DNA of 64,000 bases, from positions 13,820 to 77,819 of the forward strand of contig DASRYH010000050.1 of NCBI GenBank assembly GCA_035687245.1, given 5' to 3'. The notes below the pieces were generated by a model that was given only the letters and a program-made list of their open reading frames with translations, was not told the origin of the DNA and did no database searches. The stretch comes from Coriobacteriia bacterium. GTDB lineage: Bacteria > Actinomycetota > Coriobacteriia > Anaerosomatales > PHET01. Within the stretch, counting starts at the first letter, position 1, and every line of letters starts with the position of its first letter. The position numbers and the translations under genes were made by a program. Of the stretch, positions 9,688 to 64,000 are shown piece after piece.

Positions 9688-9729
9688 GTTGCACCTCCCC
9701 TTTCGCTGCTCGCCCCTCAGGCGTCTCGT

Positions 9730-46797: not shown

Positions 46798-46837
46798 GGC
46801 AACGCGGACCTTTCAGGTCACGAGTTCAGGTGCGCAG

Positions 46838-46846
46838 ATTCTAACA
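46838..46846 (-). promoter_or_regulatory. candidate extended -10 promoter (TGtTAGAAT) upstream of aroC
   Basis: The minus strand reads cTGTTAGAATc about 40 nt upstream of the aroC ATG. There is no convincing -35. It is flanked by two copies of GCGCACCTG (46827-46835 and 46863-46871). Confidence 0.3.
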
Positions 46847-46876
46847 GAGCAGGGGTGTTGGGCAGGTGCGCTTCGG

Positions 46877-47497: not shown

Positions 47498-47510
47498 CTC
47501 TGCTCCCCCC

Positions 47511-48128
47511 TTACTGGGCCGGCGCCGTAGCAGGCGCGCTTGCCGATGCGTCAGCCGATGCCGGCAGTACGTACGTCGTGATCTTCATCGTGGTCTGGAC
47601 GTCATACTGGCCCAGCGACGGTTCCTTATCCTTGCGTGTCTGCTCGTCAATCGGCTCCGAGCGCAGCTCGTTGACGCGGACGAGGCGAGACATCTTCTGC
47701 AGGTCCTGGACGAAGTCGACAGAGTCGCTCCAGGAGCCCCAAGTGACCACGTTCAGGCTCATCTCGACGTAGGGCTTGCCGGCTGGCATGAGCGGCGGCT
47801 GCGGCTCGATCCTTCTGATGAGCACGCCATCGTCATAGGCACGGTCCTGCAGCTCAACGAGGAGCGAGGGCAGCTCAGGGGTGTCGGGCAGCGATGCCGC
47901 CAGCTGTAGCAGCTCGGCATCGTTCTGGACGGCACGGTCACGCACTTCCTTGCGCCTATCCAGTAAAGTCTTGGCCTCGCCCTGCTGCCGTTCCGCCGAG
48001 GCGATGTCGGCATCGAGCTGGCGCATCTGAGCGATCTTGGGAACGATCAGCGCCACGACTGCGACGACCACCAGCAGCAGGAACAATGCTGCTACGAGCA
48101 TGAGTTGGTTTCGCGGTGAGAGTTTCAT
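47511..48128 (-). CDS. pilO: type IV pilus assembly protein PilO
   Basis: 205 aa. N-terminal TM, a coiled coil (QMRQLDADIASAERQQGEAKTLLDRR) and a ferredoxin-like C-terminus. Position after pilN. Confidence 0.75.
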   Translation of the reverse strand: MKLSPRNQLMLVAALFLLLVVVAVVALIVPKIAQMRQLDADIASAERQQGEAKTLLDRRKEVRDRAVQNDAELLQLAASLPDTPELPSLLVELQDRAYDDGVLIRRIEPQPPLMPAGKPYVEMSLNVVTWGSWSDSVDFVQDLQKMSRLVRVNELRSEPIDEQTRKDKEPSLGQYDVQTTMKITTYVLPASADASASAPATAPAQ

Positions 48129-48137
48129 GGCTGCCTA

Positions 48138-48782
48138 CTACTGGACCGCGGCCGTGGCCGAGGCGCTCGAAGAATCGGACGGGATTGCGATCTTCGCGGT
48201 TGCGGTGAAGTTGAGGACTTCCACGCCGGTCGACGACGCGTCCTCGTCCAGACCCTGGAAACCGCTGTAGTCGCCGATCTCGGCAGTCGTGAGCCAAACA
48301 TCGTAGAGCGAATCGAGCGAGTTCAAGCGCACGAGACTAGCAGCCGTGGACTTAAAGCTCGAAGCCATCGAAGCGCCGCCGCCACGCGGAGCGCATCCGT
48401 CGATGAGCAGCCCCTGCGTCTCACTCGCCGTCAGAGTCTTGACGAAGACCTCTTCGGGCAGGATGACCGCGAGCTCTTCGGCGAGCCGGCCCATGTTGAC
48501 CCGTCCAGCGATAGCAGCTGCTGCGACCTGCTCGCGCTGCCTGAGGGACGCTTCCTGCACCTCAAAGACGCGATAGGAGTCAGCCTGCGCCTGCAGCTTG
48601 CCGGTACTCTCCTCGATGGTCTGCAGGTCACGTGCGCGCGAGGAGGCCGTGAAGCTCAAGACGCCCCACACCGCGACAACGACTCCCAGTAGCACGAGGC
48701 CCGGAATGATGACGGCCGGGTACCAGCGCTCGTACCTGCGGCGCTCGAGAATCTCAGCTGGCAGAAGGTTGATCCTGACCAT
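48138..48782 (-). CDS. pilN: type IV pilus assembly protein PilN
   Basis: The N-terminus MVRINLLPAEILERRR is the conserved PilM-binding INLLP peptide. One TM follows. Confidence 0.85.
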   Translation of the reverse strand: MVRINLLPAEILERRRYERWYPAVIIPGLVLLGVVVAVWGVLSFTASSRARDLQTIEESTGKLQAQADSYRVFEVQEASLRQREQVAAAAIAGRVNMGRLAEELAVILPEEVFVKTLTASETQGLLIDGCAPRGGGASMASSFKSTAASLVRLNSLDSLYDVWLTTAEIGDYSGFQGLDEDASSTGVEVLNFTATAKIAIPSDSSSASATAAVQ

Positions 48783-49924
48783 TAGTCAAGACCCCCCAAC
48801 GCCAATCCGATTGCAGGCGCGACGCCAAGGCGGTCTGCCATGACGGCCGGCTCGACACTCGATGCCAGCTGCACCTGAGACAGCGGGTCGCCGATGACGA
48901 CCTCAGTCTGAAGCCCGTTCGCGAGGTACGCAGGGAAGTTGCGCAAGGCTGCACCGCTGCCCGTAAGGATGATTCGCTTGATGGTGCGCAGCTGGGCAGC
49001 CTGCGTCAGGTAGTAGTCCAACGATCGGCGGACTTCACCGATGAACTTGTTCGCCTCGCGCTCGAGCGCTTCCTGTGCGGCGCCCACGACCTGGGGATCT
49101 ACTCCCGCGGGAACCGCAGGAGCTGAGCCGTCCAGTGCGGGCAGTCCAACCTGAAGCTTGAGCGTCTCCGCCTCGTCGAAGGTCAGGTTCAACACGCTGG
49201 AGACGGCCTGGGTGAACTGGCTACCAGCCTGCGAAGACACACGAGTGAACCGTGTGACCCCACCCTCGACCACAGCGATGTTGGTGATACCCGAGCTCAC
49301 GTGGATGAGGCCGACAGCCTCGCTGTTCTCGTGCTCATCGGGGAAGAGCACGCTCGACTCGCCCAGAAGCGACCTGACGAGCGCGAAAGCGGTCACGTCG
49401 ATCTGCATGAGCTTGAGTCCGGCGCCTTCGACCGCATGTACGAGGTCGCTGATCATGTCGCGTTGCGCGGCAACGAGAAGCACTTCCATCATGTGCTCGT
49501 CGGCGGCGGTCACGTAGTCGCCGATCACCTCGTGCGAAAGGATAGCTTCGTCGATGGGAATCGGGATGTAGTCCTGGGCCTGATATTGGATGGCGCCGGC
49601 AAGCTCGGCCTTCTCCATGAAGGGCAGGTCGATCAGGCGCACAACGACCTTCTGGTTCGAGACTCCAACGGCAACTTCCTTGGAGCGGAAGCCTCCCGTG
49701 CGCCACAGGTCCTTGAGTGCGCCGGCGACCGCCTCAGCGTCGATGATCTCGCCCTCTACGACAGCACCGTAAGGCACGCCGACAGAGGCATACGACGAGA
49801 GAATGGGGCCGGAGCCGGATGGCCGAACCTGGACGGCGCGAACATGATCCGTCCCGATGTCCAACCCGATGGGTGGCGTCACTGCGCCAAAGGAAACAGG
49901 AGCCACGCAATCCTCCCTCGACAT
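48782..49924 (-). CDS. pilM: type IV pilus assembly ATPase-fold protein PilM
   Basis: 380 aa with an actin/FtsA-like fold (IGLDIGTDHVRAVQV..., ILTGSGAALRNF). Directly precedes pilN. Confidence 0.85.
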   Translation of the reverse strand: MSREDCVAPVSFGAVTPPIGLDIGTDHVRAVQVRPSGSGPILSSYASVGVPYGAVVEGEIIDAEAVAGALKDLWRTGGFRSKEVAVGVSNQKVVVRLIDLPFMEKAELAGAIQYQAQDYIPIPIDEAILSHEVIGDYVTAADEHMMEVLLVAAQRDMISDLVHAVEGAGLKLMQIDVTAFALVRSLLGESSVLFPDEHENSEAVGLIHVSSGITNIAVVEGGVTRFTRVSSQAGSQFTQAVSSVLNLTFDEAETLKLQVGLPALDGSAPAVPAGVDPQVVGAAQEALEREANKFIGEVRRSLDYYLTQAAQLRTIKRIILTGSGAALRNFPAYLANGLQTEVVIGDPLSQVQLASSVEPAVMADRLGVAPAIGLALGGLD

Positions 49925-50098
49925 CTGCTACGACTAGTCTTCATCAACTTCTGCGATGCTCCCGCGGCGATGATATCACAGAGACTGCTGTGTCGACCCT
50001 GATAGCGCCGACCACGTTTTGTGATATTCGCCACTCTTGCACAACTCTCATATCGGCAAGCGATGCCTGAGCCTTGAACTCTCATTTCCTGGTCCTGG

Positions 50099-50932
50099 TC
50101 AGGCCAGTCCGGCAAGCCTCATGTACCACTGCCAGAGAGGTTCGCCCCCGAAGACCACCACGACGGTGGCGGCCGCGATGAAGGGGCCGAACGGCATCTT
50201 TTCCCGCCAACCCTTCAAGCGTCCGGCCGGCAGCATCCACAGAACGCCGAGGATGCTCGCCAGGAACAGAACCATGACGGCGTACGGCCCAACGAAGACA
50301 CCGATCGCGCCAAGCAGTTTCACGTCCCCCATGCCGAATCCGTCGGCCTTGCGTACCGCCGAATAGAGCGCCGCGAGGCCGAGGCTCAGCCCCGCGCCAA
50401 GCAGCACGCCCGCAAGAGCGCCATACAACGGATCTGCGGGCCAGCCGCCCGCTGACGCAGGCACGAGTGGCATCGCAGCCCAACCGATCAACTTGGCAGC
50501 AGCAGCGAGCACAAGACCGGAACCGAAGAGCCCGGCGACGAGCACATTCGGCAGACGCATCACATCGATGTCGATCATCGAGAGCAGTAGGAGCAGGGTG
50601 AACAGCACGATCGCGGGCACCGTCTTCGGCCCCATGTGGTAGTAGGAGCCCGCGAGCCACCACAGAAGGCCCATCGCGGCCTCAACGAGTGGGTACCTGG
50701 TGGAGATGGGGTCTCCGCAGTCCGCGCACTTCCCGCGCAGCCATAGCCAGCCGAGCACCGGCACGTTGTGGTACCAGCGGATCGGATGGCCGCACGCCGG
50801 GCAGTGCGATGCGGGGTAGTTGAGCGACTCGCCTCGAGGCAGCCGGTAGATCACGACATTCCCAAAGCTACCGATGAGCAGGCCGAACACCCCGAGAAGG
50901 AGCGGTCCGAGCCACGAAGGGACTTCCAGCAC
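50099..50932 (-). CDS. pilD: prepilin peptidase (A24 family) PilD
   Basis: From GTG 50932 (AAGGA upstream): LIGSFGNVVIYRLP, a CPACGHPI...CADCG zinc knuckle and the catalytic-Asp region GMGDVKLLG. The upstream ORF-track extension overlaps the pilin gene and its terminator and is rejected. Confidence 0.85.
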   Translation of the reverse strand: MLEVPSWLGPLLLGVFGLLIGSFGNVVIYRLPRGESLNYPASHCPACGHPIRWYHNVPVLGWLWLRGKCADCGDPISTRYPLVEAAMGLLWWLAGSYYHMGPKTVPAIVLFTLLLLLSMIDIDVMRLPNVLVAGLFGSGLVLAAAAKLIGWAAMPLVPASAGGWPADPLYGALAGVLLGAGLSLGLAALYSAVRKADGFGMGDVKLLGAIGVFVGPYAVMVLFLASILGVLWMLPAGRLKGWREKMPFGPFIAAATVVVVFGGEPLWQWYMRLAGLA

Positions 50933-51042
50933 CTTGACAGGTCCTTTCGACGACGAGTGGCGAAACGAGCCTAGCCGAAGTGGGTTTCGGCCGCCACACC
51001 GGTCCACGCCGGTGCGCACCAGAGTGTTGTCGCTTCCTCCGG

Positions 51043-51076
51043 AGAAACAAGAAGGGCCGGGAGATCCCGGCCCTTC
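51043..51076 (-). terminator. strong rho-independent terminator after the pilin gene
   Basis: The minus strand reads GAAGGGCCGGGA-UC-UCCCGGCCCUUC followed by UUGUUUCU. The stem is 12 bp and perfect, starting 24 nt after the pilA stop. Confidence 0.8.
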
Positions 51077-51099
51077 CGTTACGCTTTGGTTCGATTGGC

Positions 51100-51465
51100 C
51101 TAGTACTCGTGGCCGTCCGACGCAGCCAGGCTGCAGACGAAGTTCGGCGAAGACGTACCGGAGCCGTTCAGGCTGTAGACACCAGCGGCGGGGCATGCCG
51201 GGGTCGTCTTGACATAGGTACCGAGATCGCCCATAGCGGCGGCGAAGTTGGCCCAGTCGGCCGGATCGTTCGTCGGGTCAGCGGCACGCCACTGCTCGAT
51301 AGCACCGTCGAGGGTGCGCAGGTTGGCCTGGCACGAACGACGCTGTGCGTTGCCGCGAGCGGCGTTGAAGACCGGGATAGCGATAGCAACAAGAATACCG
51401 ATAATAAGCACGACGACCATGAGCTCGACGAGGGTGAATCCCTCTTCCTTACGGAACAGCTTCAT
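51100..51465 (-). CDS. pilA: type IV pilin (major pilin candidate)
   Basis: From ATG 51465 (RBS GGAGG): MKLFRKEEG|FTLVELMVVVLIIGILVAIAIP. This is a class III signal peptide with Gly-1, Phe+1 and Glu+5. 121 aa with 3 Cys. Confidence 0.9.
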   Translation of the reverse strand: MKLFRKEEGFTLVELMVVVLIIGILVAIAIPVFNAARGNAQRRSCQANLRTLDGAIEQWRAADPTNDPADWANFAAAMGDLGTYVKTTPACPAAGVYSLNGSGTSSPNFVCSLAASDGHEY

Positions 51466-51500
51466 GTGGTCGCACCTCCTCTCCCCCATCTGGGGTAACA

Positions 51501-51528
51501 GTCGGGCGGAACCTTTCCGCCCTCCGAC
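51501..51528 (-). other. stem-loop in the pilA 5' leader
   Basis: GGGCGGAA-agg-TTCCGCCC is a perfect 8-bp stem, extendable with GTCGG/CCGAC across a 2-nt bulge. It ends about 36 nt upstream of the pilA ATG. Confidence 0.4.
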
Positions 51529-51643
51529 ATCACAGTTATCGGTGGCCCACAACCAGACTTGAGCAAAAATGTGGGATAAATCTCAGATTGGTGTCGACCG
51601 TCACTACAAATGAGCACAAATCGGCGTTTTGCCAGCTTGTCGG

Positions 51644-51685
51644 GGGGAAACGAAACGGGCCCGGGAGCTGATGGCTCCTGGGCCC
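51644..51685 (-). terminator. terminator-like hairpin after pilC
   Basis: 12-bp stem GGGCCCAGGAGC/GCTCCCGGGCCC with one mismatch, followed by GUUUCGUUUCCCC. It begins about 39 nt after the pilC stop. Confidence 0.5.
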
Positions 51686-51723
51686 GCTGCATTCGATTTC
51701 AGTACGAACTGCTGATGCTGCCG

Positions 51724-52932
51724 CTACTGCACCAGGCTGATGACGTTGAACATCGGCTGATACAGGGCGATGACCATACCGCCGACTACGACGCCCAGAG
51801 TCATCATCATGAGCGGTTCGATCAGTGATGTGAGACCCTCTACCGCCGACGAGACCTCTTCGTCGTAGAAGTCGGCGATCTTGTTGAGCATCGCGTCGAG
51901 CGCACCGGTCTCTTCGCCGACCGCGATCATCTGCACGAGCATCGATGGGAAGACCTTGCTCTCCGATAGCGGCTTGGCGATCGTCTCGCCTTCCTTGATT
52001 GCCGATCGGGCGTTCTGAACCGCTTCGGCGACTACCTCGTTGCCGGCGGTCTCGCCAACGATGTCGAGCGCGGTGAGGATTGGAACGCCCGCCGCGATGA
52101 GCGTGCCGAACGTTCGCGTGAACTTGGCCAGGGCCATCTTCTGAATCATGCCGCCGAACACAGGCATCTTGAGCTTCGCGCTGTCCCAAATGTAGCGTCC
52201 GGCGCCACTCGCCCACCACTTGAAGATGAAGAACAGGACGACGGCGACCACCGCAGAAACGAGACCCTTCCAGCTTGCGACGAAGTGGGAGATGTTGATC
52301 AGCGTGCGCGTCGTGATTGGCAGCTCACCACCCATGTCCGAGAACATCTTCTCGAAAGTCGGGATGACGAAGATCATCATCGCGGCAAGGATCAGCAGAA
52401 CCATCGCGCCCATCGCGACCGGGTAGGTCATCGCTGACTTCACCTTGCCCCGCAACGCCAAGTCACGTTCGAAGTGGTCCGCTACTCGATTCAAGACCTC
52501 GTCGAGAACACCACCAGTCTCGCCGGCTCGGACCATGTTGATGAAGATGGGCGGGAACACCTTGGGGTGCTTGGCGAGAGAGTCAGAGAGCGACTGGCCC
52601 GCCTCAACGTCCTTCCCGAGCTGCGCGATGATGTCGCGCAGATACGAGTTCTCCGTCTGACCCGACAGGATCGTCAGACACTTCGTGAGCGACAGACCCG
52701 CGTTGATCATCGTGGAGAACTGCCGGGCGAAGATCGAGACGTCCTTGAGCTTCACGCCCGTACCGAACGTGATGCTGTTCAGGGCTGCAACGCCGGTCTC
52801 AGAGTTGAGCTCGACGATGATGTAGCCCATCTGAGTGAGCTTGCCCTGGACCGCCTCTTTGCTCTCACCTTCGAGCTTACCCTTGGCGATCTTGCCTGCT
52901 CGATCTCGGACTGTGTATACGAACGTGGCCAT
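51724..52932 (-). CDS. pilC: type IV pilus platform protein PilC (GspF family)
   Basis: 402 aa with two GspF repeats (FARQFSTMINAGLSL..., FTRTFGTLIAAGVPI...). Confidence 0.92.
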   Translation of the reverse strand: MATFVYTVRDRAGKIAKGKLEGESKEAVQGKLTQMGYIIVELNSETGVAALNSITFGTGVKLKDVSIFARQFSTMINAGLSLTKCLTILSGQTENSYLRDIIAQLGKDVEAGQSLSDSLAKHPKVFPPIFINMVRAGETGGVLDEVLNRVADHFERDLALRGKVKSAMTYPVAMGAMVLLILAAMMIFVIPTFEKMFSDMGGELPITTRTLINISHFVASWKGLVSAVVAVVLFFIFKWWASGAGRYIWDSAKLKMPVFGGMIQKMALAKFTRTFGTLIAAGVPILTALDIVGETAGNEVVAEAVQNARSAIKEGETIAKPLSESKVFPSMLVQMIAVGEETGALDAMLNKIADFYDEEVSSAVEGLTSLIEPLMMMTLGVVVGGMVIALYQPMFNVISLVQ

Positions 52933-52960
52933 GATGACTCCTTGATGCGTTGTCCGCCTG

Positions 52961-54631
52961 TTAGACGATGACTCGCATGATCTCCTCGATCGAGGTCTGC
53001 CCCAGCCTTACCTTTTCTAGACCATCTTGCTTCAGCGTGTGCATGCCTTGCGCTACTGCCGTCGCCTTGATCTTCTCAGAGGTCGCTTCTTCCACACAGA
53101 GGCGCGAGATCTCCTCAGTGATCGTCAGCACTTCGTGCACGCCGATACGCCCACGATAGCCCGTACCACCGCACCGGCGACAGCCTTCGGCGCGGTATAC
53201 GACCTCAGGGACGTTATCGGCAGGGAAGCCGGCCTCGATGAGCACCTGCGACTTGGGACGCCACTCCTGCTTGCAGTCCGGGCATAGCTTCCGAGCCAGG
53301 CGTTGGGCCAGCACGCAGTCGATTGCCGAGGAGACCAGGAAGGGCTCGACGCCCATCTCGATAAGGCGCGTCATAGCACTCGACGAGTCGTTGGTGTGCA
53401 GCGTGGAGAGGACGAGGTGACCGGTGAGCGCCGACTCGATGGCGATCTGTGCGGTCTCCTGGTCACGGATCTCGCCGACGAGGATGACATCGGGCGAGCA
53501 GCGCAGGAACGAGCGCAGTGCGCGAGCGAACGTGAGACCGGCCTTGTGGTTGATCTGACACTGGTTGACGCCCGGGAGGCGATATTCGACCGGGTCTTCG
53601 GCGGTGATGATGTGTCTGTCGGGATCGTTGAGCACGTTTATCGCCGCATAGAGCGACGTCGACTTGCCCGAACCCGTCGGACCGGTCACGAGTACGGTGC
53701 CGTACGGCTTCTTGAAGGAGGCCTCGAAGCGCTCGAGTGCCGAGGGCAGGAAGCCGAGATCGGAGAGCTGTAGCAGGATCGAGTCCTTGCGCAGGATTCG
53801 CAGAACCACGCGCTCGCCGTAGACCGTCGGGAGCGTTGACACTCGGAAGTCCACGCGGTGCGCGCCGACGGTGACGGCACAGTGGCCGTCCTGTGGCCGA
53901 CGCGAGTCCGCAATGTCCATCTCGGCCATGATCTTGAAGCGGCTGATGAGCGACTGCTGCGACGACTTCGGACTGCGCATGATCTCGTGGAGCACGCCGT
54001 CGATTCGGAAGCGCACGCGAACCTCAGACTCCTGCGGCTCGATGTGAATGTCAGACGCGCGCTCGGTGACGGCCTTCTGGATGAGGTAGTTGACGAGTTT
54101 GACGGCCGGAGACTCCTCGCCGACCTCAGTCATACCCGCGAGCTCGTCTGATGAGATGTCGTCGGTTCCAACGAAGTCGGAGTCGTCGGTGTGCTCGGCG
54201 ACCTTGTAGTACTCCTGGATCGCTGCCTGAATGTCGTCTTTAGTGGAGATTGCGGGGCGGATTTCGAGACCCGTGATGATGCGCAGGTCATCGAGGGCAA
54301 GCACGTTCTGCGGGTCGGCCATCGCAACCACGAGCTCACCGTCGGTGAGCTTGATCGGCATCAGCGTGTACCGTTCGGCGAGGTCACGGGGAACGGTCGT
54401 GACGGCCGAAGGCTCGGGATTAACCTCTCCGAAGTCGATGTAGTCGATCCCGATCTGCTTGGCCATGACCGAGAGAATCGAGCCTTGAGTCGCGTACCCG
54501 AGGTCGACCAACACGCGGCCGAGCGGACGGCTGGTGGCCCGGTGGACCTCAAGCGCGTCCGCCAACTGGCGGTCGGTGATGATTCCGGCCCGCTCAAGGA
54601 GCTGGCCGAGTCGTTGTCCGGCTAGTGCCAC
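52961..54631 (-). CDS. pilB: type IV pilus assembly ATPase, PilB/GspE family (paralogue 1)
   Basis: 556 aa. N-terminal GspE-N/MshEN-like domain, Walker A GPTGSGKST, Asp box AEDPVEY, Walker B LVGEIRD, His box LSTLHTND and a tetra-Cys cluster CPDC...CRRCGGTGYRGR. GTG start. Confidence 0.92.
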   Translation of the reverse strand: MALAGQRLGQLLERAGIITDRQLADALEVHRATSRPLGRVLVDLGYATQGSILSVMAKQIGIDYIDFGEVNPEPSAVTTVPRDLAERYTLMPIKLTDGELVVAMADPQNVLALDDLRIITGLEIRPAISTKDDIQAAIQEYYKVAEHTDDSDFVGTDDISSDELAGMTEVGEESPAVKLVNYLIQKAVTERASDIHIEPQESEVRVRFRIDGVLHEIMRSPKSSQQSLISRFKIMAEMDIADSRRPQDGHCAVTVGAHRVDFRVSTLPTVYGERVVLRILRKDSILLQLSDLGFLPSALERFEASFKKPYGTVLVTGPTGSGKSTSLYAAINVLNDPDRHIITAEDPVEYRLPGVNQCQINHKAGLTFARALRSFLRCSPDVILVGEIRDQETAQIAIESALTGHLVLSTLHTNDSSSAMTRLIEMGVEPFLVSSAIDCVLAQRLARKLCPDCKQEWRPKSQVLIEAGFPADNVPEVVYRAEGCRRCGGTGYRGRIGVHEVLTITEEISRLCVEEATSEKIKATAVAQGMHTLKQDGLEKVRLGQTSIEEIMRVIV

Positions 54632-54714
54632 TTAGTCTGCTGCTTCCGCCGAGGACCTACCGATGCATCAGAGCACGCCACCGCCTGCTGTGGTAGCAGA
54701 CCTTGTGACGCTCC

Positions 54715-55254
54715 TCACACTCCTTTATCGGTTTCATCCTTGGCTTCTTTTAGGGCCGAGAGCAGCGAATCGGCATATGAGCGGAACTTCAGCTGCGTGC
54801 GCGTCCCGTCTTTGACCACGATCCGGGTGTCACCGACCCACAGTTCGACAGGTGCGACGAGACCGCTTGCGTAGGGCGCCTTGGCCGCGCGATCGGTGTC
54901 AGACTCGTTCTTAGCTTGCGCAGGCTCAGGCGCCAACTCGGCGTCCTCCGGCTCGATTTCCCCGGCCACTTGCGGCCCTTCGACGGCGTCCGACACTCCA
55001 GCGGCGTCTGCGGGCAGATAACGAGTCTCAGGCACAGGGAGCAACGGTTCTTCGGCAGGCTCCAGCACCAGGGGCCGTGGTGCCGGGAATGTAGTCTGGG
55101 GTTCGTCGGCCGGCATCAGCTGGGAGGCAGGCCCGCCTACTGCCGAAACGGACTTGTTGGACGACTTGTTCAGGCCAGTCGCGAGAGTGATCACGATGCC
55201 GATGACACCGATGACGATCCCGGCACCGATTCCCAAGAGGATCGGATCAGCCAC
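54715..55254 (-). CDS. 179-aa single-pass membrane protein with P/E-rich linker and small C-terminal domain (hypothetical)
   Basis: N-terminal TM (ILLGIGAGIVIGVIGIVITLA), then a P/E/A-rich linker, then VELWVGDTRIVVKDGTRTQLKFRSYADSLLSALKEAK. Starts 3 nt after the GTPase stop. I recognise no family. Confidence 0.55.
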   Translation of the reverse strand: MADPILLGIGAGIVIGVIGIVITLATGLNKSSNKSVSAVGGPASQLMPADEPQTTFPAPRPLVLEPAEEPLLPVPETRYLPADAAGVSDAVEGPQVAGEIEPEDAELAPEPAQAKNESDTDRAAKAPYASGLVAPVELWVGDTRIVVKDGTRTQLKFRSYADSLLSALKEAKDETDKGV

Positions 55255-55257
55255 TCC

Positions 55258-55785
55258 CTACTCCATGTTCTCGACGATGGCGTAGAGCAGTCCCAGCAGA
55301 ACCGACTTGACCGAGTCGCGGCTGCGGGCGTCCAGCGCCAGCATTGGAACGTCTGGGTGAAGCTCAAGGCTCTTTGCGAGCGCCTTAAGCGACCCTTCGT
55401 CGCCCTCGGCGACCTTGTTTGCGCCTACGACGAACGGCACGTCCGAGCGCTCCGTGAAGAACTCGATGATCTCCTTGGCCTCACGCACGCTCTCGCGTGA
55501 GCCGGCGTCGACGAGAACGACGAAGCCAAGCATTCCTTCCGAAAGCGTCTCCCACATGAAGGAGAATCGTGACTGCCCGGGCGTGCCGAACAGGTAGAGC
55601 ACCACATCATCGGAGACCGTGATGCGACCGAAGTCCATTGCAACCGTCGTCTCGCCCTTGCTGTCAGACGAGTAGTCGCTGACCTGTCGCTCAGTTGAGA
55701 GCACGGTGATCTCGGAGACCGACTTGATGAACGTCGTCTTACCTGCGTTAAACGGGCCTGTGACCACTACTTTGACCGACTGCAT
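55258..55785 (-). CDS. small Ras-like P-loop GTPase (CvnD / COG2229 / MglA-superfamily type)
   Basis: 175 aa. G1 VVVTGPFNAGKTTF, switch I TTVAMDFG, G3 LFGTPGQSRF and a degenerate G4 GANKVAEG. This resembles conservon CvnD-type GTPases. Confidence 0.8.
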   Translation of the reverse strand: MQSVKVVVTGPFNAGKTTFIKSVSEITVLSTERQVSDYSSDSKGETTVAMDFGRITVSDDVVLYLFGTPGQSRFSFMWETLSEGMLGFVVLVDAGSRESVREAKEIIEFFTERSDVPFVVGANKVAEGDEGSLKALAKSLELHPDVPMLALDARSRDSVKSVLLGLLYAIVENME

Positions 55786-55795
55786 CTGCGGTGTC

Positions 55796-58528
<2,733 letters not shown>

Positions 58529-58566
58529 TTGAAAACGTCACTTACCTCTTAGCCGAATACCCGTCA

Positions 58567-59199
58567 CTAGCCGAGAATCTCGCCGATCTCGCCTGCCGTG
58601 CGTCGCATGTCGAAGATCGTCAAACCAAGCTTGGCGCGACGGTCTGCCAGGCACGTCAGAACCGCCCTGTCTCCCGCCGCCATCAGCAGCACGTAGCCGT
58701 CCTCGCCTTCGATGAACACCTGCGAGAGCTTCCCCCGTCCGAGTTCGGCCGCTGCGCGCTCGCCAAGTCCCAGAATCGCTGCAGACATCGCGCCGACCCG
58801 GTCCTCCTGGATCCCATCGGGCAACGCGGATGCCATCGGAAAGCCGTCGAGCGACACGAGCGCAGCCGCTTCAACGTCGTGGTTCTCTTGCATGAGTGCG
58901 TTGAGCGCGTCTGCTAGCCGACGTTCGCGATCGGTACGCGCCGGCTGCGGGATCGGTGCCACAGGTGCCGCGGACACAACGGGTGCAACGGCGGGTGCCA
59001 CAGGTTCAGCGACCGGTGCTACGAGAGCGACCGGCATTGACGCGACATCGACTTGGCCGGCGTCGGCTTCCAGGTCGCTGTCCGCCAACGCGAGCGGCAC
59101 AGCCACCGGGGGTGTAACAGGCGGCACGATCGGAACCGGCACGCTCTGCTCTTCGGCATCGTCATCCATGAACAGTTCGCCGAATACGTCATCGACCAT
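58567..59199 (-). CDS. Roadblock/LC7 (MglB/CvnB-like) domain protein with acidic + P/V/A-rich N-terminal extension
   Basis: From ATG 59199 (RBS GGGAGGTG). The C-terminal 110 aa (LNALMQENHDVEAAALVSLDGFPMASAL...SQVFIEGEDGYVLLMAAGDRAVLTCLA) fit the Roadblock/LC7 fold pattern. The N-terminal 100 aa are low complexity. Confidence 0.75.
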   Translation of the reverse strand: MVDDVFGELFMDDDAEEQSVPVPIVPPVTPPVAVPLALADSDLEADAGQVDVASMPVALVAPVAEPVAPAVAPVVSAAPVAPIPQPARTDRERRLADALNALMQENHDVEAAALVSLDGFPMASALPDGIQEDRVGAMSAAILGLGERAAAELGRGKLSQVFIEGEDGYVLLMAAGDRAVLTCLADRRAKLGLTIFDMRRTAGEIGEILG

Positions 59200-59352
59200 G
59201 CGACGAACACCTCCCAGGGGTCTTAGGCGGGACGACACGCGGGTTGCGCGGACAGCAGGAAATGCAATCGGCGTGAGTGCCAATCGTCGCACGAAGGATG
59301 GGGGCAAACAACAGCGAACTGCGCCCATATGCTGCAATTTCTCTCGGACGCA

Positions 59353-61023
59353 TCACACCACCACCCTCAGGATCTCTTCGAGCGACGTCTGGCCCAGACG
59401 AACCTTCGCGAAGCCGTCGTCACGCAGCGTGAGCATGCCCTCTTCGACGGCCTGTTTCTTGATGCGGTCGGCCGAAGTGTTCTCGACCGTAAGGTGTTCG
59501 AGCGTCTCCGACATACGCATCACTTCATGAATGCCCATTCGGCCCTTGTAGCCGATGCCGTTGCACTTGCGGCAGCCGCGCGACTTGAAGAGTCTGGGCG
59601 GATCCCCCGGCTCGAACGGGAAACCGAGCCGTTCAAGCTGCGACTCTTCGGGCAGGTAGGCTTCCTTGCACTCGGGGCACAGACGCCGTGCAAGACGCTG
59701 CGCGACCACCAGCGTGACAGCCGACGCCGTCAGGAAGGGCTCGATGCCCATCTCGGTGAGTCGGGTGACTGCCGAAGGGGCGTCGTTTGTGTGCAGAGTG
59801 GAGAGCACGAGGTGTCCGGTCAGCGCCGCTTCAATCGCGATAGTGCCGGTCTCGCGGTCTCGGATCTCACCAATCATGACCTTGTCAGGGTCCTGACGAA
59901 GAATCGAGCGAAGGGCGGCTGCGAATGTGAGCCCGGCGCGCTCGTTGACGTGGACCTGGGACAGTCCGGCAAGCCGGTACTCGACAGGGTCTTCGACAGT
60001 GATGAGATTCGACTTCGGGTCGTTGGTCTCGTTGATCGCCGCGTACAGCGTGGTCGACTTACCCGAACCCGTCGGACCGGTGACTAGGATGGCGCCGTAC
60101 GGGAGCGACAGCGCCTCCAGCAGCAGCTGCATATTCTGCTCGAGGAAGCCGAGGTCCTTGAGTGACATCATGATCGAGTCACGGCGTAGAAGTCGCATAA
60201 CGGCGAGTTCGCCGTGCACGAGCGGAAGCGTCGCGACGCGGAAGTCCACGGCCTTGCTGTCGAGCACGACTCCGAATCGACCGTCCTGGGGCACTCGCCG
60301 CTCGGCGATGTCCATGCCCGAGGTGATCTTCAGGCGGCTAATCAGCTGCCGGTGAGTCTTCTTCGGTGCGGTGAACACCTCTCGGCACACGCCATCGATG
60401 CGGAACCGCACGCGCATCTCATGCTCCTGCGGCTCTATGTAGACGTCGCCAGCACCCTGACGGATGGCCTCGGTGACGATCTGGTTCATCAGTTTGGCTA
60501 CCGCAGACTCTTCTTGGGCGGCCTCATCGTCCTCGTCCTTGGCCGACGAGACGTTCTGATCGTCGAGCTCGCCAAGCATGTCCTCGACGTTGGTCTGGCT
60601 GGCCTTGTAGCGCTCGATGGCGCTGTCGATATCAGTGCCCACGCCCACGACGACGCGCACATCACGGCGCGTCACAATACGCAGGTCGTCGATGGCAAGG
60701 ATGTTGGCCGGATCGGCCATCGCAACCACGAGGGTGGCATCCTCGAGGGCGACCGGTAGCATCGAGTGCTTTCTCATGAGATCCATGCTCACGAGCACGA
60801 GAGCGTTGGGATCGATATCGGTCGCGGAGATGTCGACGAACTCCAGCCCCATCTGATCGGCGATCGCACGCGCGATCGACGTCTCAGACGCGTAGCCGCA
60901 CTCGTCGAGCACGAACGGCAATGGCCGGTCCTGCGCGCGCGAAGTCGCGTCGTCAAGCTGCTCCTGCGTGACGACTCCCGCACGCACGAGCAGCTGTCCG
61001 AGTCTCTGACTACGCGCTGCCAT
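59353..61023 (-). CDS. pilB: PilB/GspE-family secretion ATPase (paralogue 2)
   Basis: 556 aa. Same architecture as paralogue 1 (GPTGSGKST, VEDPVEY, MIGEIRD, LSTLHTNDA, CPEC...CRKCNGIGYKGR). Overlaps the aroE stop by 14 nt. Confidence 0.9.
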   Translation of the reverse strand: MAARSQRLGQLLVRAGVVTQEQLDDATSRAQDRPLPFVLDECGYASETSIARAIADQMGLEFVDISATDIDPNALVLVSMDLMRKHSMLPVALEDATLVVAMADPANILAIDDLRIVTRRDVRVVVGVGTDIDSAIERYKASQTNVEDMLGELDDQNVSSAKDEDDEAAQEESAVAKLMNQIVTEAIRQGAGDVYIEPQEHEMRVRFRIDGVCREVFTAPKKTHRQLISRLKITSGMDIAERRVPQDGRFGVVLDSKAVDFRVATLPLVHGELAVMRLLRRDSIMMSLKDLGFLEQNMQLLLEALSLPYGAILVTGPTGSGKSTTLYAAINETNDPKSNLITVEDPVEYRLAGLSQVHVNERAGLTFAAALRSILRQDPDKVMIGEIRDRETGTIAIEAALTGHLVLSTLHTNDAPSAVTRLTEMGIEPFLTASAVTLVVAQRLARRLCPECKEAYLPEESQLERLGFPFEPGDPPRLFKSRGCRKCNGIGYKGRMGIHEVMRMSETLEHLTVENTSADRIKKQAVEEGMLTLRDDGFAKVRLGQTSLEEILRVVV

Positions 61024-61921
61024 CGTTCACTTCCATGTCCCCCATCCGCGCGTCAAGCGCGGCCTCGGCTGCCTTCTTCATCACGTCGCGCGGCGCCTTG
61101 GCCGTCGACCCTTCGTTCCACATGTCAATCGCGATGGCCGCCTGAGCAACAAGCATCCCCAGCCCGTCGAGCGCAACCGCACCGGCGTTGCGGCCGTCCG
61201 ACACGAACGCGGTCGGACGATTCGTGCCATAGACCATGTCGAACCGGACCTGGCCGGGGCGCACCCACTCGGCGGGAACGGGGCTGGGATCTCCCGTCCG
61301 CATGCCGAGCGGCGTCGCATTCAGCACGAGGTCCGCGCCTACGACGACGTCGCGAGCCATGCTTGACTCCTCGACCTCGAACAGCACGGAACCGCCGTGC
61401 CGGCCGAGTCGCTCGACGAGTTCCGCGGCCTTCTCGACGTTCCGATTCACTACCGTGATCCGAGACGCCCGCCCGAGCATGAGCGCGACGACCGCCGCAC
61501 CAGCAGCTCCGCCGGCACCGAGGACCACGATGTCTTTATCGGCAGCGGTGAAGTCGGCCTCGACCTCAAGTGCCTCAATCAGGCCGCGTCCGTCGGTGTT
61601 GTAGCCCACAGAGCGCCCGTCTTCGGAGATCTGGACGGTGTTGACCGCCCCCGCCATCGCCGCGGCGGTGGAGACCTCATCGACAAGCTCCATGACCGAC
61701 TGCTTGTAGGGCATGGTGACGTTGAATCCAACGAACGGGAGCGAGCCGGTCGCGGCCACCACTCGGCGCAAGCCGGCCTCATCGGGAACCTCCAGCGGCA
61801 CGTATACCCAGTCGAGACCCAGGTGCGCGTATGCGGCGTTGTGAATCGCCGGTGACAGCGTGTGTGCCAGGGGTTTGCCTATCACACCTGCGAGCTTCGT
61901 CGTTCCACGAATAGACTGCAT
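61010..61921 (-). CDS. aroE: shikimate dehydrogenase
   Basis: From the internal ATG: MQSIRGTTKLAGVIGKPLAHTLSPAIHNAAY..., with NVTMPYK and LGAGGAAGA. The start coordinate was derived by in-frame arithmetic from the ORF track, so it may be off by a few nt relative to my reading of the printed sequence. The 131-aa Arg-rich upstream extension overlaps yqeG and is rejected. Confidence 0.88.
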   Translation of the reverse strand: MQSIRGTTKLAGVIGKPLAHTLSPAIHNAAYAHLGLDWVYVPLEVPDEAGLRRVVAATGSLPFVGFNVTMPYKQSVMELVDEVSTAAAMAGAVNTVQISEDGRSVGYNTDGRGLIEALEVEADFTAADKDIVVLGAGGAAGAAVVALMLGRASRITVVNRNVEKAAELVERLGRHGGSVLFEVEESSMARDVVVGADLVLNATPLGMRTGDPSPVPAEWVRPGQVRFDMVYGTNRPTAFVSDGRNAGAVALDGLGMLVAQAAIAIDMWNEGSTAKAPRDVMKKAAEAALDARMGDMEVNDGSA

Positions 61922-61971
61922 CTGACTCAAGCCCCTCAGTTGAGTGAAGTGCGACTTCACTACTTGAAAGC

Positions 61972-62466
61972 TTACGGGAGTGGCGTCCTCCCTGCGAGCA
62001 CCAGTGACTCCAGCCGCCTGAGCACGAGGGTGTGCGGCAGGTCGGACTCGGAAAGCGGTTGTACGAGCACGGTCGTCATTCCAACGAGCTTGCCACCCAT
62101 TACATCGGTAAAGAGCTGGTCGCCGATTATGGCTGTCTTCTTCGCGGTGGTGCCTAGCAGCTTCACTCCACGAAGAAAGCCGAACGGGAGCGGCTTGAGT
62201 GCGCGGGGCACCATCTCGACGCCGATGGCGTCTGCCACACGCTTCACGTGAGCATGCCAGTTGTTGGAGACCAGACACATCGAGAAGCCCGACGCGATCG
62301 CGTCGCGTGCCCACGCGTTGAGCTCTTCGACCATCTCGCCGGTGTCTCGGGGCAGAATCGTGTTGTCGATATCGACCAGAAGCGAGTCGACTCCACGAGC
62401 GCGCAGCTCGTCGAGATCGATATCGGTCACCTTTCGGTAGTAGAACGTTGGCGCGAGTAGCGACAT
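61972..62466 (-). CDS. yqeG: YqeG-family HAD-IIIA phosphatase
   Basis: 164 aa. LLVDIDNTI, CLVSNN and IGDQLFTDV are the HAD motifs I-III. yqeG-aroE adjacency is the same as in Bacillus. Confidence 0.8.
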   Translation of the reverse strand: MSLLAPTFYYRKVTDIDLDELRARGVDSLLVDIDNTILPRDTGEMVEELNAWARDAIASGFSMCLVSNNWHAHVKRVADAIGVEMVPRALKPLPFGFLRGVKLLGTTAKKTAIIGDQLFTDVMGGKLVGMTTVLVQPLSESDLPHTLVLRRLESLVLAGRTPLP

Positions 62467-63147
62467 CTAGTGGTCCTGTACGCCGTCTCCGTTGTGGTCG
62501 TGACTCGCGAGGCCGCCCGCGGACTTGATGGCTTCGAGCTCCTTGTTGATCGCTGCCACCTTCGCGTCGTCCTTCGCCAGCATGTAGATGCCCCTGAACA
62601 TCACGAGACCATCGTAGCGGTCATCCGCGGTCGACCACGAAACATCGCTTCGCATGCCCTTCCCGGCGAGTTCGATCATCTTCGGCAGGTTGCCCTTGGC
62701 ATCCTGCATCATCAGCAGCTGAGCGAGGTTGGCGTACATGAGGCCCGAGGTTGGGTTGCTCTTCAGCCCGTCCTCGGCGATCCCGATTCCCTGCTCCATG
62801 TTGCCGCCCTTGGCGACCATGTAAGAGGCCATGTAGTAGCCCTGCACGAACTGCGGGTCGAGCAGGGTCACCAGCCGAAGGTGCGGGAGCATGTAGGCCT
62901 GCTTCTCCAGCGGCACCCCGTCGTAGTAGGTGTGGAAGATCGGGTCGATGCGGTTCCAGATCACGGCTGCTGCGAACATCCGCAGCCCGCCGAGGAAGGC
63001 GAAGCCGCTCTTGCCCAGAACACGCCCGGTGCTCGAATGCCCCTCTGCCGGCGCAGAGTACGACGCGAGGGCCGTACCCGCGAAGAGCACGACTACTAGT
63101 ACCGCGACCAGTACGAGTACGCGGGTCTTGCCCGTGAATGCGCTCAC
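62467..63147 (-). CDS. membrane-anchored TPR-like repeat protein (hypothetical)
   Basis: GTG 63147 forms a GTGA overlap with the upstream permease stop. N-terminal TM (VLVLVAVLVVVLFAG), helical-repeat-like sequence and a C-terminal DHNGDGVQD loop. The Arg-rich 248-aa extension in the track ORF (to 63891) is rejected. Confidence 0.5.
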   Translation of the reverse strand: MSAFTGKTRVLVLVAVLVVVLFAGTALASYSAPAEGHSSTGRVLGKSGFAFLGGLRMFAAAVIWNRIDPIFHTYYDGVPLEKQAYMLPHLRLVTLLDPQFVQGYYMASYMVAKGGNMEQGIGIAEDGLKSNPTSGLMYANLAQLLMMQDAKGNLPKMIELAGKGMRSDVSWSTADDRYDGLVMFRGIYMLAKDDAKVAAINKELEAIKSAGGLASHDHNGDGVQDH

Positions 63148-63884
63148 AGGTCTCTGCCCGAGAACGCTGCTGAGGCTCCTACCAGCAGAAGACCAGCGAG
63201 CGCCACGAAGGTGAGCACCATCGAGCCGATGTAGACCGGGCTCACACCACCGCCGTGCGCGATCGGGTTGATGACGTTGAAAGCGTCCAGGCTCGGAAGC
63301 CACCACGGCGTTGCCGGCTGGCCCTCTCCACCGAATCCGAGCACGCCGGAGATCGAGTGGCCGATGAAGATGAACGCGAGCGCTGCGATGACCGCGGTCA
63401 CCGGGTTGAAGCGGCTGGAAGCGAGCACCGTGAGCGCCATGATGACGCCGGTCTCGAGCCAGATCGCGATCGCACCCTCGATGAGCACGAGCATGGGCTG
63501 GTGGTAGACGAGCATGCCGCAGGCGATCGCGATGACGACGAACGCGGCGATGACGATGCCTGTGACCAGGAACATCCCGAGCCAGCTGCCCACGATGTAG
63601 TGCCAACGCCGAACATCGCGCGCCAGCAGGCTGAACACCGTGCGACGCTCCACTTCGCCAGGAATTCGCGTGGCCGCAAGCGCGAGGCCCACGATGAGAG
63701 CTGCGGTGAACATTAGCGCCAAGGTGATTTCGCGATAGACCGCAGAGACGACTTCGCCGCCGTAGTTCGGAAGCATCGGAATGGCGAACGCAAGCAGTGC
63801 TGCGAACACGAGCACTACCCAGATGACTTTTCGGCGCACGGCGTCTGCGAGGACGGCGCGGGCGATAGCGAGAGTCTGGTTCAT
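63144..63884 (-). CDS. ABC-2-type transporter permease
   Basis: From ATG 63884: MNQTLAIARAVLADAVRRKVIWVVLVFAALLAF... Six predicted TM helices. ATGA overlap with the upstream ATPase stop. Confidence 0.7.
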   Translation of the reverse strand: MNQTLAIARAVLADAVRRKVIWVVLVFAALLAFAIPMLPNYGGEVVSAVYREITLALMFTAALIVGLALAATRIPGEVERRTVFSLLARDVRRWHYIVGSWLGMFLVTGIVIAAFVVIAIACGMLVYHQPMLVLIEGAIAIWLETGVIMALTVLASSRFNPVTAVIAALAFIFIGHSISGVLGFGGEGQPATPWWLPSLDAFNVINPIAHGGGVSPVYIGSMVLTFVALAGLLLVGASAAFSGRDL

Positions 63885-64000
63885 CGCGCACCCCCCTCCT
63901 CTACCGACTCGCCAAGCATGCGGGCGAAGTAGTCCTCGAGCGAGTCGCGTTTGGGCGAGACCGCCAGCAGCGTCCAACCGGCGTCGTCGAGTGCATCGAC
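63881..64000 (-). CDS. ABC transporter ATP-binding protein, C-terminal fragment (5' end beyond window)
   Basis: The minus-strand frame reads VDALDDAGWTLLAVSPKRDSLEDYFARMLGESVEEGGAR*. This is a typical ABC-2 exporter ATPase tail (SLEDxF). Confidence 0.55.
   Translation of the reverse strand, partial: VDALDDAGWTLLAVSPKRDSLEDYFARMLGESVEEGGAR

Follow-up and report, generated by a model that had tools for sequence, protein, structure and literature searches.

A predicted kinase-less relative of the actinobacterial conservon within a type IVa pilus operon of a Coriobacteriia bacterium

What role might a small GTPase and a Roadblock protein play in the midst of a pilus operon? This question is raised by a stretch of 64,000 nucleotides from a Coriobacteriia bacterium (contig DASRYH010000050.1), to which we refer in its entirety as the window and whose positions serve as coordinates throughout. 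Four of its genes, coding for a Roadblock/LC7 protein, a PATAN (DUF4388) protein, a small GTPase and a single-pass membrane protein, lie as a cassette between two genes for PilB-type assembly ATPases, pilB2 and pilB1, and all cassette and pil genes are found on the minus strand (Table 1). Sequence comparison relates this cassette, which has no kinase gene, to the actinobacterial conservon (AGPS); it is built into a type IVa pilus operon.

The locus had previously been described from its letters alone. The open reading frames (ORFs) of this original prediction and their order on the minus strand were all recovered in our analysis, its Roadblock, DUF4388 and GTPase assignments were each supported by matches to profile hidden Markov models (HMMs; Table 1), and its two PilB paralogues proved to be full-length, each with T2SSE at about 1e-137 and an MshEN match. 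Within the cassette, the gaps of 38 nt (Roadblock to PATAN), 10 nt (PATAN to GTPase) and 3 nt (GTPase to membrane protein) correspond to the reported range of 3-38 nt; 153 nt separate pilB2 from the Roadblock gene, and 83 nt the membrane protein gene from pilB1. No terminator-like hairpin was found on the coding strand within the cassette (16 kb scanned), an Rfam scan of the intergenic gaps for a riboswitch gave no match, and the GC content is level throughout the locus. The length of the ORFs, their strong family matches and their conserved synteny argue that they are not products of chance.

The small GTPase and the Roadblock protein

As a conservon reference, we used the gene set of Streptomyces venezuelae, in which a histidine kinase gene is followed by genes for Robl_LC7, DUF742 and ATP_bind_1 proteins. 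The GTPase from the window has an identity of 42% with S. venezuelae CvnD (E 5e-40), but of only 21% with MglA from Myxococcus, for which the reference sequence is identical to PDB 6HJH_A. With this CvnD, it shares the core TTVAMDFGRIT / LYLFGTPGQxRFxFxW. The motifs that had been picked out earlier (GPFNAGKT, FGTPGQSRF and NKVA) are all present, so that G1 reads GPFNAGKT, G2 ETTV, G3 GTPGQ and G4 NKVA. The family is highly conserved, with 50 positions that are invariant between Actinomycetota and Chloroflexota; the invariant stretches include ETTVAMDFGRIT and LYLFGTPGQxRFxFMW..L.EGMLG and thereby both switch regions.

A profile-sequence alignment of the GTPase to MglA by hhalign (94.9%) places Thr46 of the window protein opposite the intrinsic arginine finger of MglA (ETDRT), and GTPGQ opposite TVPGQ. 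According to Wuichet and Sogaard-Andersen (PMC4316618), the signature of the MglA-family Groups 2-5 consists of a GTPGQ G3 motif, a Thr instead of the arginine finger and a coupled Roadblock protein, while Group 1 possesses TVPGQ. The window GTPase displays the features of Groups 2-5, not those of Group 1. Its G4 motif (NKVA in the window, N[KR]xx in the orthologues from Actinomycetota) is not the NxFD of the conservon Group 2, and it belongs most plausibly to the heterogeneous Group 5, members of which have been reported in Actinobacteria and Chloroflexi, 'occasionally' near PATAN genes (PMC4316618).

The cassette resembles the MglA/MglB (and SofG) systems of Myxococcus and Thermus in having a Ras-superfamily GTPase without the G3 aspartate, a coupled Roadblock protein and a link to type IV pili, and it differs from them by GTPGQ in the place of TVPGQ and by Thr in the place of the intrinsic arginine finger. 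MglA, furthermore, is not encoded in a pil operon, and it acts through SgmX/FrzS/SopA, not through a PATAN protein. The proposal of a Roadblock plus small-GTPase switch module of the conservon/MglAB kind for this locus is supported, but the GTPase is not an MglA proper.

Searches of the PDB with the GTPase, both as a single sequence and as a profile, returned eukaryotic Rab, Sec4 and Arl8 proteins as the best matches, and MglA was not among the 60 matches listed. Since this search is unhelpful for the placement into a sub-family, we relied on the direct comparisons with MglA and CvnD. A Foldseek search with the AlphaFold2 (AF2) model of the GTPase found Rab1b and KRAS (at about 5e-4), which supports a Ras-like fold only. 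The G4 aspartate of NKxD (window 55405-55416) is invariant in Chloroflexota (NKQD, 19/19) and variable in Actinomycetota (NKVA, NKVD, NKVG, NRAE and others). It is this aspartate that selects guanine, and its variability in the Actinomycetota hints at a relaxed or altered nucleotide specificity.

In the Roadblock protein, the C-terminal Roadblock domain is preceded by an N-terminal extension that comprises about 95 aa and is rich in Pro, Ala and Val; the best start codon is ATG 59199, as a GGGAGG Shine-Dalgarno sequence is located about 8 nt upstream. The Roadblock domain is 26% identical to the S. venezuelae CvnB encoded adjacent to the CvnD reference (E 2.6e-11). Among solved structures, it matches 7F8M (2e-23), MfpD/Rv3364c (9HEF; 9e-8) and CvnB5 (3LEQ; 1.6e-7), and also 9JUE and 7YH1; none of the solved MglB structures matches at E<0.01. 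For MfpB, the mycobacterial homologue of CvnD, experiments have shown the CvnC protein MfpC to be the guanine nucleotide exchange factor (GEF) and the CvnB protein MfpD to be the GTPase-activating protein (GAP) (PMC11343762; see also the summaries in PMC13015309 and PMC13343842). We therefore regard the CvnB/MfpD-like Roadblock protein from the window as a candidate GAP.

The PATAN protein and its likeness to CvnC

The gene order Roadblock-X-GTPase is common to the cassette and to the conservons (CvnA-CvnB-CvnC-CvnD; Mfp in mycobacteria), so that the conservon order cvnB-cvnC-cvnD pointed out in the original prediction is indeed present. The protein at position X is the 910-aa PATAN protein. 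The AF2 model of its residues 1-255 (predicted local distance difference test, pLDDT, 89.9) consists of a PATAN core of the beta/alpha type, an insertion of four helices (residues 59-122) that adds about 40 residues relative to the PF14332 model, and a winged-helix-like domain (about residues 175-237). A Foldseek search of this model against the PDB gave nothing below E 0.01 (best 0.015), and no solved structure resembles the whole; partial matches to subunits of the GATOR1/SEA complex and to winged helices extended over about 70 columns and were set aside as not interpretable.

The acidic tail, for which roughly 600 aa had been estimated, comprises 665 aa with 26% D+E and 4% K+R, a net charge of -144 and a (PE)13 run. 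Its length varies among orthologues, which have 434-808 aa in the Coriobacteriia-type clade, a total of about 275 aa in Chloroflexota and >1000 aa in the Solincola-type loci. From about 275 aa to more than 1000 aa, they all end in the same amphipathic helix. The C-terminal end reads ...DKSTLLKIIDGLKEL in the window, with ...RDLRVDKSTLLKIIDGLKEL-COOH as the helix, ...NKSLLLRLIAGVRGL in the Actinomycetes class and ...RSVIRKLIDRIKRL in Chloroflexota, and this helix resembles the end of CvnC/DUF742 proteins (...ERILREVIxGLRAL-COOH).

This link was tested with 120 real DUF742 proteins. When 43 PATAN orthologues were compared by hhalign with the DUF742 alignment, the winged helix was matched with a probability of 85.1% (P 6.2e-6); with the variable tail cut out, the winged helix-turn-helix (wHTH) domain plus the C-terminus reached 93.7% (P 1.9e-7) and were aligned to the last residue of both families. 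Controls with reversed sequences gave P values of 0.17-0.19. Attempts with small profiles were weak (19% in hhalign with 16 sequences from Chloroflexota; E of about 1 for a wHTH HMM against DUF742), and the best match of the DUF742 HMM to the ORFs of the loci had an E of 0.25, though 20/36 of the weakest matches were PATAN proteins. The C-terminal motif [LIVM][LIVM]..[LIVM]I.G[LIVM][RK].L$ occurs throughout the DUF742 set (120/120) and, among the PATAN orthologues, in 32/72 plus 4 fragments; background ORFs totalling 930,057 residues contained 0 true matches. These counts are illustrative, because the motif was written after both families had been seen, and hhalign constitutes the test.

We conclude from these profile alignments that the wHTH domain and the C-terminal helix of the PATAN protein are homologous to CvnC/DUF742 (C-terminal two-thirds), and that the protein is not a stand-alone DUF742 protein. 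The earlier statement that a DUF4388 protein occupies the DUF742 position is consequently in part literally true (hhalign 85-94%), but it does not apply to a whole DUF742 protein. Given this homology, the cassette can be viewed as a kinase-less CvnB-CvnC-CvnD core whose CvnC-like part is fused to PATAN. No match to HATPase_c, as expected of a CvnA histidine kinase, was found in any cassette protein, and the gene upstream is pilB2 (T2SSE). In comparison with the conservon, the CvnC-like part is placed behind PATAN and, in Actinomycetota, behind a long acidic linker; a single-pass membrane protein is added; and the cassette forms part of a type IV pilus operon, while the conservon stands alone. 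Moreover, the module also occurs in Chloroflexota, whereas mfpC has been reported to be exclusive to Actinobacteria (PMC13015309).

Paralogues of 246-250 aa from the same clade consist of PATAN and the winged helix and do not have the terminal helix. One of 248 aa (L081:8001-16747 of the Anaerosomatales assembly GCA_030017365.1; also L082), which is about 55% identical to residues 1-245 of the window protein and has no tail, heads an operon with the order PATAN, CheR, REC (receiver), PilB-like ATPase (612 aa, MshEN+T2SSE), CheW, CheW, methyl-accepting chemotaxis protein and hybrid CheA. In this che operon, which is reminiscent of the cyanobacterial Tax/Pix systems, separate genes encode PATAN and REC, and a third PilB-type ATPase is included. 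At the one locus of the 248-aa paralogue that was examined, there is no GTPase neighbour; the terminal helix thus seems to go with an adjacent GTPase, as it is absent from a paralogue without one. PATAN itself goes with PilB-type ATPases in both contexts, since the che operon contains a PilB-like ATPase as well.

The helical insertion of the PATAN domain contains a feature that the original prediction, correct as to the domain, had overlooked. NF053729, the model curated by NCBI for the MshE-type pair of motifs binding cyclic di-GMP (c-di-GMP), has a cutoff of 38 bits and matches residues 59-113 with 46 bits. The second repeat, RLGQILVDHGAVTEKVLETFVSEQ (residue 90), fits the strict consensus RLGxx(L/V/I)(L/V/I)xxG(L/V/I)(L/V/I)xxxxLxxxLxxQ (PMC5013675). 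Among the Coriobacteriia-type PATAN orthologues, 23/24 pass NF053729 at about the cutoff; in the other clades, only 7/20 have a match at E<=1e-3. The N-terminus of PilB1 has a canonical MshEN motif pair (53.9 bits), and 38/38 orthologues of this downstream PilB pass, whereas the N-terminus of PilB2 from the window scores below the cutoff (30.2 bits) and 11/21 of the PilB2-type orthologues pass. Because 11/21 orthologues pass, even though the window protein itself fails by score, we dropped the general statement that PilB2 has lost c-di-GMP binding. The second MshEN repeat of PilB2-type proteins is usually without Leu-Gly (RSLTAVL or RPLPFVL versus PLGRVLV).

Tandem helical repeats of about 24 residues, of which only the second fits the published consensus, are the feature that the PATAN insertion has in common with MshEN receptors (MshE, the N-termini of PilB/PilF, and NfrB); its repeats are, in contrast, inserted into a PATAN domain and not situated at the N-terminus of an ATPase. 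In the passage quoted in bioRxiv 10.1101/2021.06.11.447907, Makarova et al. (2006) likened the insertion to the N-terminus of PilB-type ATPases; a statement in the literature that it is a c-di-GMP site was not found. We regard c-di-GMP binding by this alpha-clip, and by PilB1, as putative and as a likely input. No GGDEF motif is present within the 64-kb window.

Distribution of the module and its pilus neighbourhood

We scanned the GTPase against one genome per GTDB species, which gave at least 561 relatives; the best 80 loci were kept with a flank of up to 10 kb, the window proteins were mapped on them by tblastn, and loci with enough flank are called informative. Among these best 80 of at least 561 loci, PilB is encoded downstream of the cassette in 41/43 informative loci from several classes of Actinomycetota, a strong enrichment of pil neighbours that bears out the association seen in the window. 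PATAN precedes the GTPase in 66/66 loci whose flank is long enough, the Roadblock gene adjoins in 53/53 Actinomycetota loci with enough upstream flank, and most loci from Actinomycetota have aroE on the upstream side of the cassette.

Five arrangements were observed. (i) The 32 loci of Coriobacteriia/Anaerosomatales-type metagenome-assembled genomes (MAGs) have the order aroE-pilB2-Roadblock-PATAN-GTPase-(transmembrane protein)-pilB1-pilC-pilA-pilD-pilMNO-aroC, as in the window, and all informative ones encode PilB downstream (23/23) and upstream (22/22). (ii) Two loci (L034 and L046) of Ca. Geothermocultor possess a cassette flanked by two PilB genes in the same manner (PilB downstream in 1/1 informative). 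(iii) In 23 loci from Actinomycetes-class MAGs (Acidothermaceae, Frankiales, Nanopelagicales and Mycobacteriales), the order is aroE-Roadblock-PATAN-GTPase-pilB-(PilT-like)-pilC-pilA, with PilB downstream in 13/15 and upstream in 0/15 informative loci. (iv) Four Solincola-type loci carry three tandem Roadblock genes, the gene for a PATAN protein of >1000 aa and the GTPase gene, then aroE-pilB-pilC-pilM (PilB downstream 4/4, upstream 0/4); in these (L041, L052, L064 and L070; about 5100-10500), the PATAN protein has 1081-1273 aa and aroE is found between the GTPase gene and pilB. (v) In 19 loci from Chloroflexota (Anaerolineae, Herpetosiphon, Ardenticatenaceae and others), PATAN (about 275 aa) and GTPase genes, in some cases followed by a Roadblock gene, are located amid unrelated housekeeping genes.

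Because of these five arrangements, we take PATAN, GTPase and Roadblock to be the core of the module. Across the Actinomycetota, it sits next to pilB, and the second PilB is a lineage-specific feature. The notion that a PilB ATPase has taken the position of the conservon kinase consequently holds for the Coriobacteriia-type loci and for L034/L046 only; the first position is occupied by aroE in the Actinomycetes class, which has a single PilB, and by extra Roadblock genes in the Solincola-type loci.

The 179-aa membrane protein gave no Pfam or NCBIfam match. It is built from an N-terminal transmembrane (TM) helix, a linker that varies in length and a C-terminal strand-strand-helix motif of about 40 aa (APVELWVGDTRIVVKDGTRTQLKFRSYADSLL). 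The same build, with the motif APVE[ML]WFGDxR[IV]GVKxGTxTYxxFxx[YI]AxxL, follows the GTPase in most Coriobacteriia-type loci, and in Actinomycetes-class loci as well as L034/L046 the counterpart of this gene ends in a related strand-strand-helix motif. The membrane protein, listed previously without attention to its conservation, is a conserved fourth member of the cassette.

The pilus genes of the window represent type IVa machinery of the monoderm type, with PilB, PilC, a prepilin, PilD and PilM/N/O encoded together (Table 1); the PilN-like ORF has no Pfam match. PilB1 and PilB2 are 51% identical, and PilB2 possesses a Walker A motif (GPTGSGKST) and a tetracysteine motif. A PilT-like retraction ATPase is not encoded within the 64-kb window. 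In Actinomycetes-class loci, pilB is followed by a PilT-like gene whose product is about 31% identical to PilB1, and in several close relatives (L003, L012, L015, L016, L021, L022 and L026) the stretch between pilB1 and pilC (window: 52932-52961) could accommodate a further gene of about 1.1 kb; L016 and L022 show a weak PilB-like match there. Directly after pilA, a hairpin at 51050-51077 (minus strand; 12 pairs, 9 of them G-C) outranks all other terminator-like sites within the scanned 16 kb and suggests pilin-specific termination or attenuation of transcripts within the operon. The 206-aa membrane protein encoded after pilO has an N-terminal TM helix, a Ser/Thr-rich linker and a beta-rich C-terminal part; its position is kept in Coriobacteriia-type loci (34-52% identity), and it may be a monoderm-specific component of pilus alignment.

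The whole pilus operon, together with the cassette, is set into a string of shikimate-pathway genes (window 43591-62314, minus strand). Its upstream border is aroE, which overlaps the start of pilB2 by 14 nt, and aroC-aroK-aroB-aroQ follow downstream of the pil genes; all five shikimate-pathway genes were confirmed with HMMs. A bracket of aroE and aroC around pil genes recurs in several actinobacterial classes (loci L004, L014, L017, L025, L037 and L041). Upstream of aroE, the long ORF at 62467-63891 (minus strand) codes for a hydrophobic segment and, towards the C-terminus, for 277 aa without a Pfam match; its Arg-rich N-terminal half looks like an over-extension of the ORF in GC-rich DNA.

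Table 1. Coordinates of the cassette, of domains within the PATAN protein and of neighbouring genes in the window.
Feature	Position	Strand	Basis
aroE (shikimate dehydrogenase)	61010-61921	-	Pfam Shikimate_dh_N 1.4e-27; ATG at 61921
pilB2, PilB-type assembly ATPase, 556 aa	59353-61023	-	T2SSE 1.8e-137, MshEN 3e-21, TIGR02538 1.5e-186
Roadblock/LC7 protein, 210 aa	58567-59199 (ORF to 59337)	-	Robl_LC7 5.4e-19
PATAN/DUF4388 protein, 910 aa	55796-58528	-	DUF4388 PF14332 2.3e-33
PATAN domain, residues 1-170	58019-58528	-	PF14332
Alpha-helical insertion (alpha-clip) within PATAN, residues 57-113	58190-58360	-	NF053729, AF2 model
Winged-helix-like domain of PATAN protein, residues 175-240	57809-58006	-	AF2 secondary structure, hhalign
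Acidic proline-rich low-complexity tail of PATAN protein, residues ~246-892	55853-57793	-	Composition
Extreme C-terminal helix of PATAN protein	55799-55852	-	Motif common to CvnC/DUF742
CvnD-like small GTPase, 175 aa	55258-55785	-	ATP_bind_1 (PF03029) 3.7e-19; Arf, Ras and TIGR small_GTP also match
Single-pass membrane protein, 179 aa	54715-55254	-	N-terminal TM helix; no family match
pilB1, PilB-type assembly ATPase	52961-54631	-	T2SSE 1.6e-138, MshEN
pilC platform protein	51724-52932	-	T2SSF 8.5e-67
pilA prepilin	51100-51465	-	N_methyl 2.6e-08
pilD (start uncertain), pilM, PilN-like gene, pilO, 206-aa membrane protein	46877-50932	-	A24_N_bact 3.6e-35, PilM_2 6.9e-55, PilO 9.5e-14
206-aa membrane protein after pilO	46877-47497	-	No Pfam match
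aroC	45649-46797	-	Chorismate_synt 9e-113

Possible outputs of the cassette

PATAN domains offer a conceivable route from the cassette to the pilus. The PatA-type PATAN-REC regulators of cyanobacteria (PixG, PixE, LsiR and PilG) likewise combine a PATAN domain, including a helical insertion similar to the N-terminus of PilB, with a linkage to the pilus motor. The PATAN protein from the window, in contrast, has a CvnC-like module with GTPase and Roadblock protein as its input and not a phosphorylatable receiver; no Response_reg match was found in it with Pfam. There is also no chemosensory kinase in the cassette, whereas the PATAN paralogue of a related genome heads a Che-type operon. Reportedly, binding of PATAN to PilB1 and PilC was described by Jakob in 2020 and by Han in 2022. 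In two-hybrid experiments with Synechocystis proteins, the PATAN domain (PixE, PixG, LsiR) alone binds the N-domains of PilB1 and PilC and suffices for output; PatA-type regulators determine in which direction cyanobacteria assemble their pili, and the authors argue against DNA binding by these proteins (bioRxiv 10.1101/2021.06.11.447907).

Against this background, we consider it somewhat more probable than its opposite that the cassette represents a G-protein switch that acts on the pilus motor through the PATAN domain. Each step of the mechanism rests on homology. The Roadblock dimer would serve as GAP in the manner of MfpD, and the CvnC-like module as GEF, or as a partner of the GTPase that depends on its nucleotide state, in the manner of MfpC. 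The PATAN domain would be the output and bind the N-domains of PilB and PilC as in Synechocystis, so that the nucleotide state of the GTPase would control whether, and probably where, PATAN engages PilB/PilC, and thereby gate pilus extension. Speculatively, c-di-GMP bound to the alpha-clip of PATAN (and to PilB1) would be the likely input, the membrane protein might tether the complex at the base of the pilus, and the acidic tail, as a flexible spacer, might set the PATAN head apart from the C-terminal helix binding the GTPase.

Several observations speak against a motor switch of this kind. In Chloroflexota, PilB is encoded within 10 kb downstream in 0/17 and upstream in 0/10 loci, and since PATAN-GTPase(-Roadblock) exists there without pil genes within 10 kb, the module is not obligatorily linked to pili. 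The MshEN-like motif is eroded in most PATAN orthologues from the Actinomycetes class and from Chloroflexota, and in the window protein itself the first MshEN repeat is without the leading Arg and the spacer has 8 residues instead of 5. When the PATAN protein is compared as a single sequence with the Pfam DUF742 model, E is 0.13 (12.5 bits versus a cutoff of 27). The AF2 model of the GTPase is poor in its N-terminal third (pLDDT 68.8; shallow alignment with 72-97% identity), and the bound nucleotide could be ATP, as the guanine-selecting G4 aspartate is not conserved in Actinomycetota.

Gating of the motor has its closest rival in a spatial (polarity) regulator; the two are compatible with each other, and the sequences do not tell positioning and gating apart. 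The GTP-bound GTPase would then mark a pole or another site to which the PATAN protein recruits PilB, with the membrane protein and the acidic tail as a localisation scaffold. MglA and SofG of Myxococcus do position PilB and PilT (PMC4316618), and PatA-type PATAN proteins control assembly direction; the cassette has a conserved gene for a membrane anchor, and its GTPase bears the wider MglA-family signature (GTPGQ G3 motif and coupled Roadblock protein) and aligns well with MglA in hhalign. That GTPase, however, is far closer to CvnD than to MglA, it is without the arginine finger and TVPGQ, and no RomR/RomX-like genes are found nearby. We thus hold a purely spatial role to be doubtful.

A role of the module in selecting PilB1 or PilB2 for docking onto PilC/PilM, as advanced in the original prediction, is suggested by the location of the cassette exactly between the two PilB genes in the window and in all informative Coriobacteriia-type loci, by the different N-terminal MshEN motifs of the two paralogues, and by the binding of PATAN to the PilB N-domain in Synechocystis. 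As a general function, this choice between paralogues is refuted by the conservation of the cassette in lineages with one PilB, which form the majority of those bearing it: no upstream PilB is encoded in Actinomycetes-class and Solincola-type loci, and no adjacent PilB in Chloroflexota. It is improbable as an explanation of the cassette and could at most be a lineage-specific elaboration. Equally small is the probability that we assign to a conservon-like regulator with a non-pilus output, for instance gene expression via the winged helix, and a merely inherited aroE-aroC neighbourhood: conservons act on development, on metabolism and on the protection of gyrase rather than on pili (PMC13343842, PMC11343762), the Chloroflexota module has no pil neighbours and the winged helix gives weak MarR-type matches, but the tight operon packing with pilB on both sides, the experimentally shown pilus-motor output of PATAN, the arguments against DNA binding by PatA-type proteins and, above all, a pilB neighbourhood that persists through rearrangement (aroE moved between GTPase and pilB in the Solincola-type loci) disfavour this reading. 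Insertion by chance or by a mobile element is ruled out by the level GC content across the locus and by synteny conserved across classes.

The gating of PilB/PilC by a G-protein switch, which we continue to prefer, connects several lines of published work. Gene-neighbourhood links of PATAN with MglB and MglA were noted by Makarova (2006), as cited in PMC4316618, and by Wuichet (2014; PMC4316618). These MglA/MglB-like genes near PATAN, the binding of PATAN to PilB1/PilC, the GAP and GEF roles in conservons and the MshEN motifs are already known. The earlier remark that no characterised GTPase switch was known to be hard-wired into an actinobacterial or monoderm pilus is therefore to be qualified: no paper describing this arrangement was found, but the linkage of PATAN to MglA/MglB and its binding to PilB1/PilC had been published. 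In a literature search that covered mostly sources outside the subscription journals, and in which absence is not proof, we did not find the cassette described in type IVa pilus operons of Actinobacteria or other monoderms, nor the PATAN::CvnC relationship, nor a kinase-less conservon core outside Actinobacteria. According to a review (PMC6916266), research on actinobacterial pili has so far dealt with those of the Tad type. We know of no experimental study of the type IVa pili of Actinomycetota.

A more specific proposal, which we put forward tentatively, is that PATAN::CvnC is a bifunctional coupler: its CvnC-like end would be the GEF or state sensor of the CvnD-type GTPase, and its c-di-GMP-loaded PATAN head would dock onto PilB/PilC. 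The module of Actinomycetota and Chloroflexota might then be the ancestral kinase-less form, from which the conservons of Streptomyces and Mycobacterium would have arisen when PATAN was lost and a histidine kinase acquired. If true, a G-protein switch would for the first time be known to be coupled directly to a type IV pilus motor of Gram-positive bacteria.

The cassette represents a conserved and clearly delimited candidate regulator directly upstream of pilB. It joins conservon/AGPS signalling, the outputs of which are obscure, with the PATAN-dependent control of PilB known from cyanobacteria and with c-di-GMP sensing of the MshEN type. If PATAN::CvnC works as proposed, a conservon-like system would gain an identifiable physical output, the pilus motor, and the route by which a second messenger and a GTPase cycle reach pilus extension would become testable.

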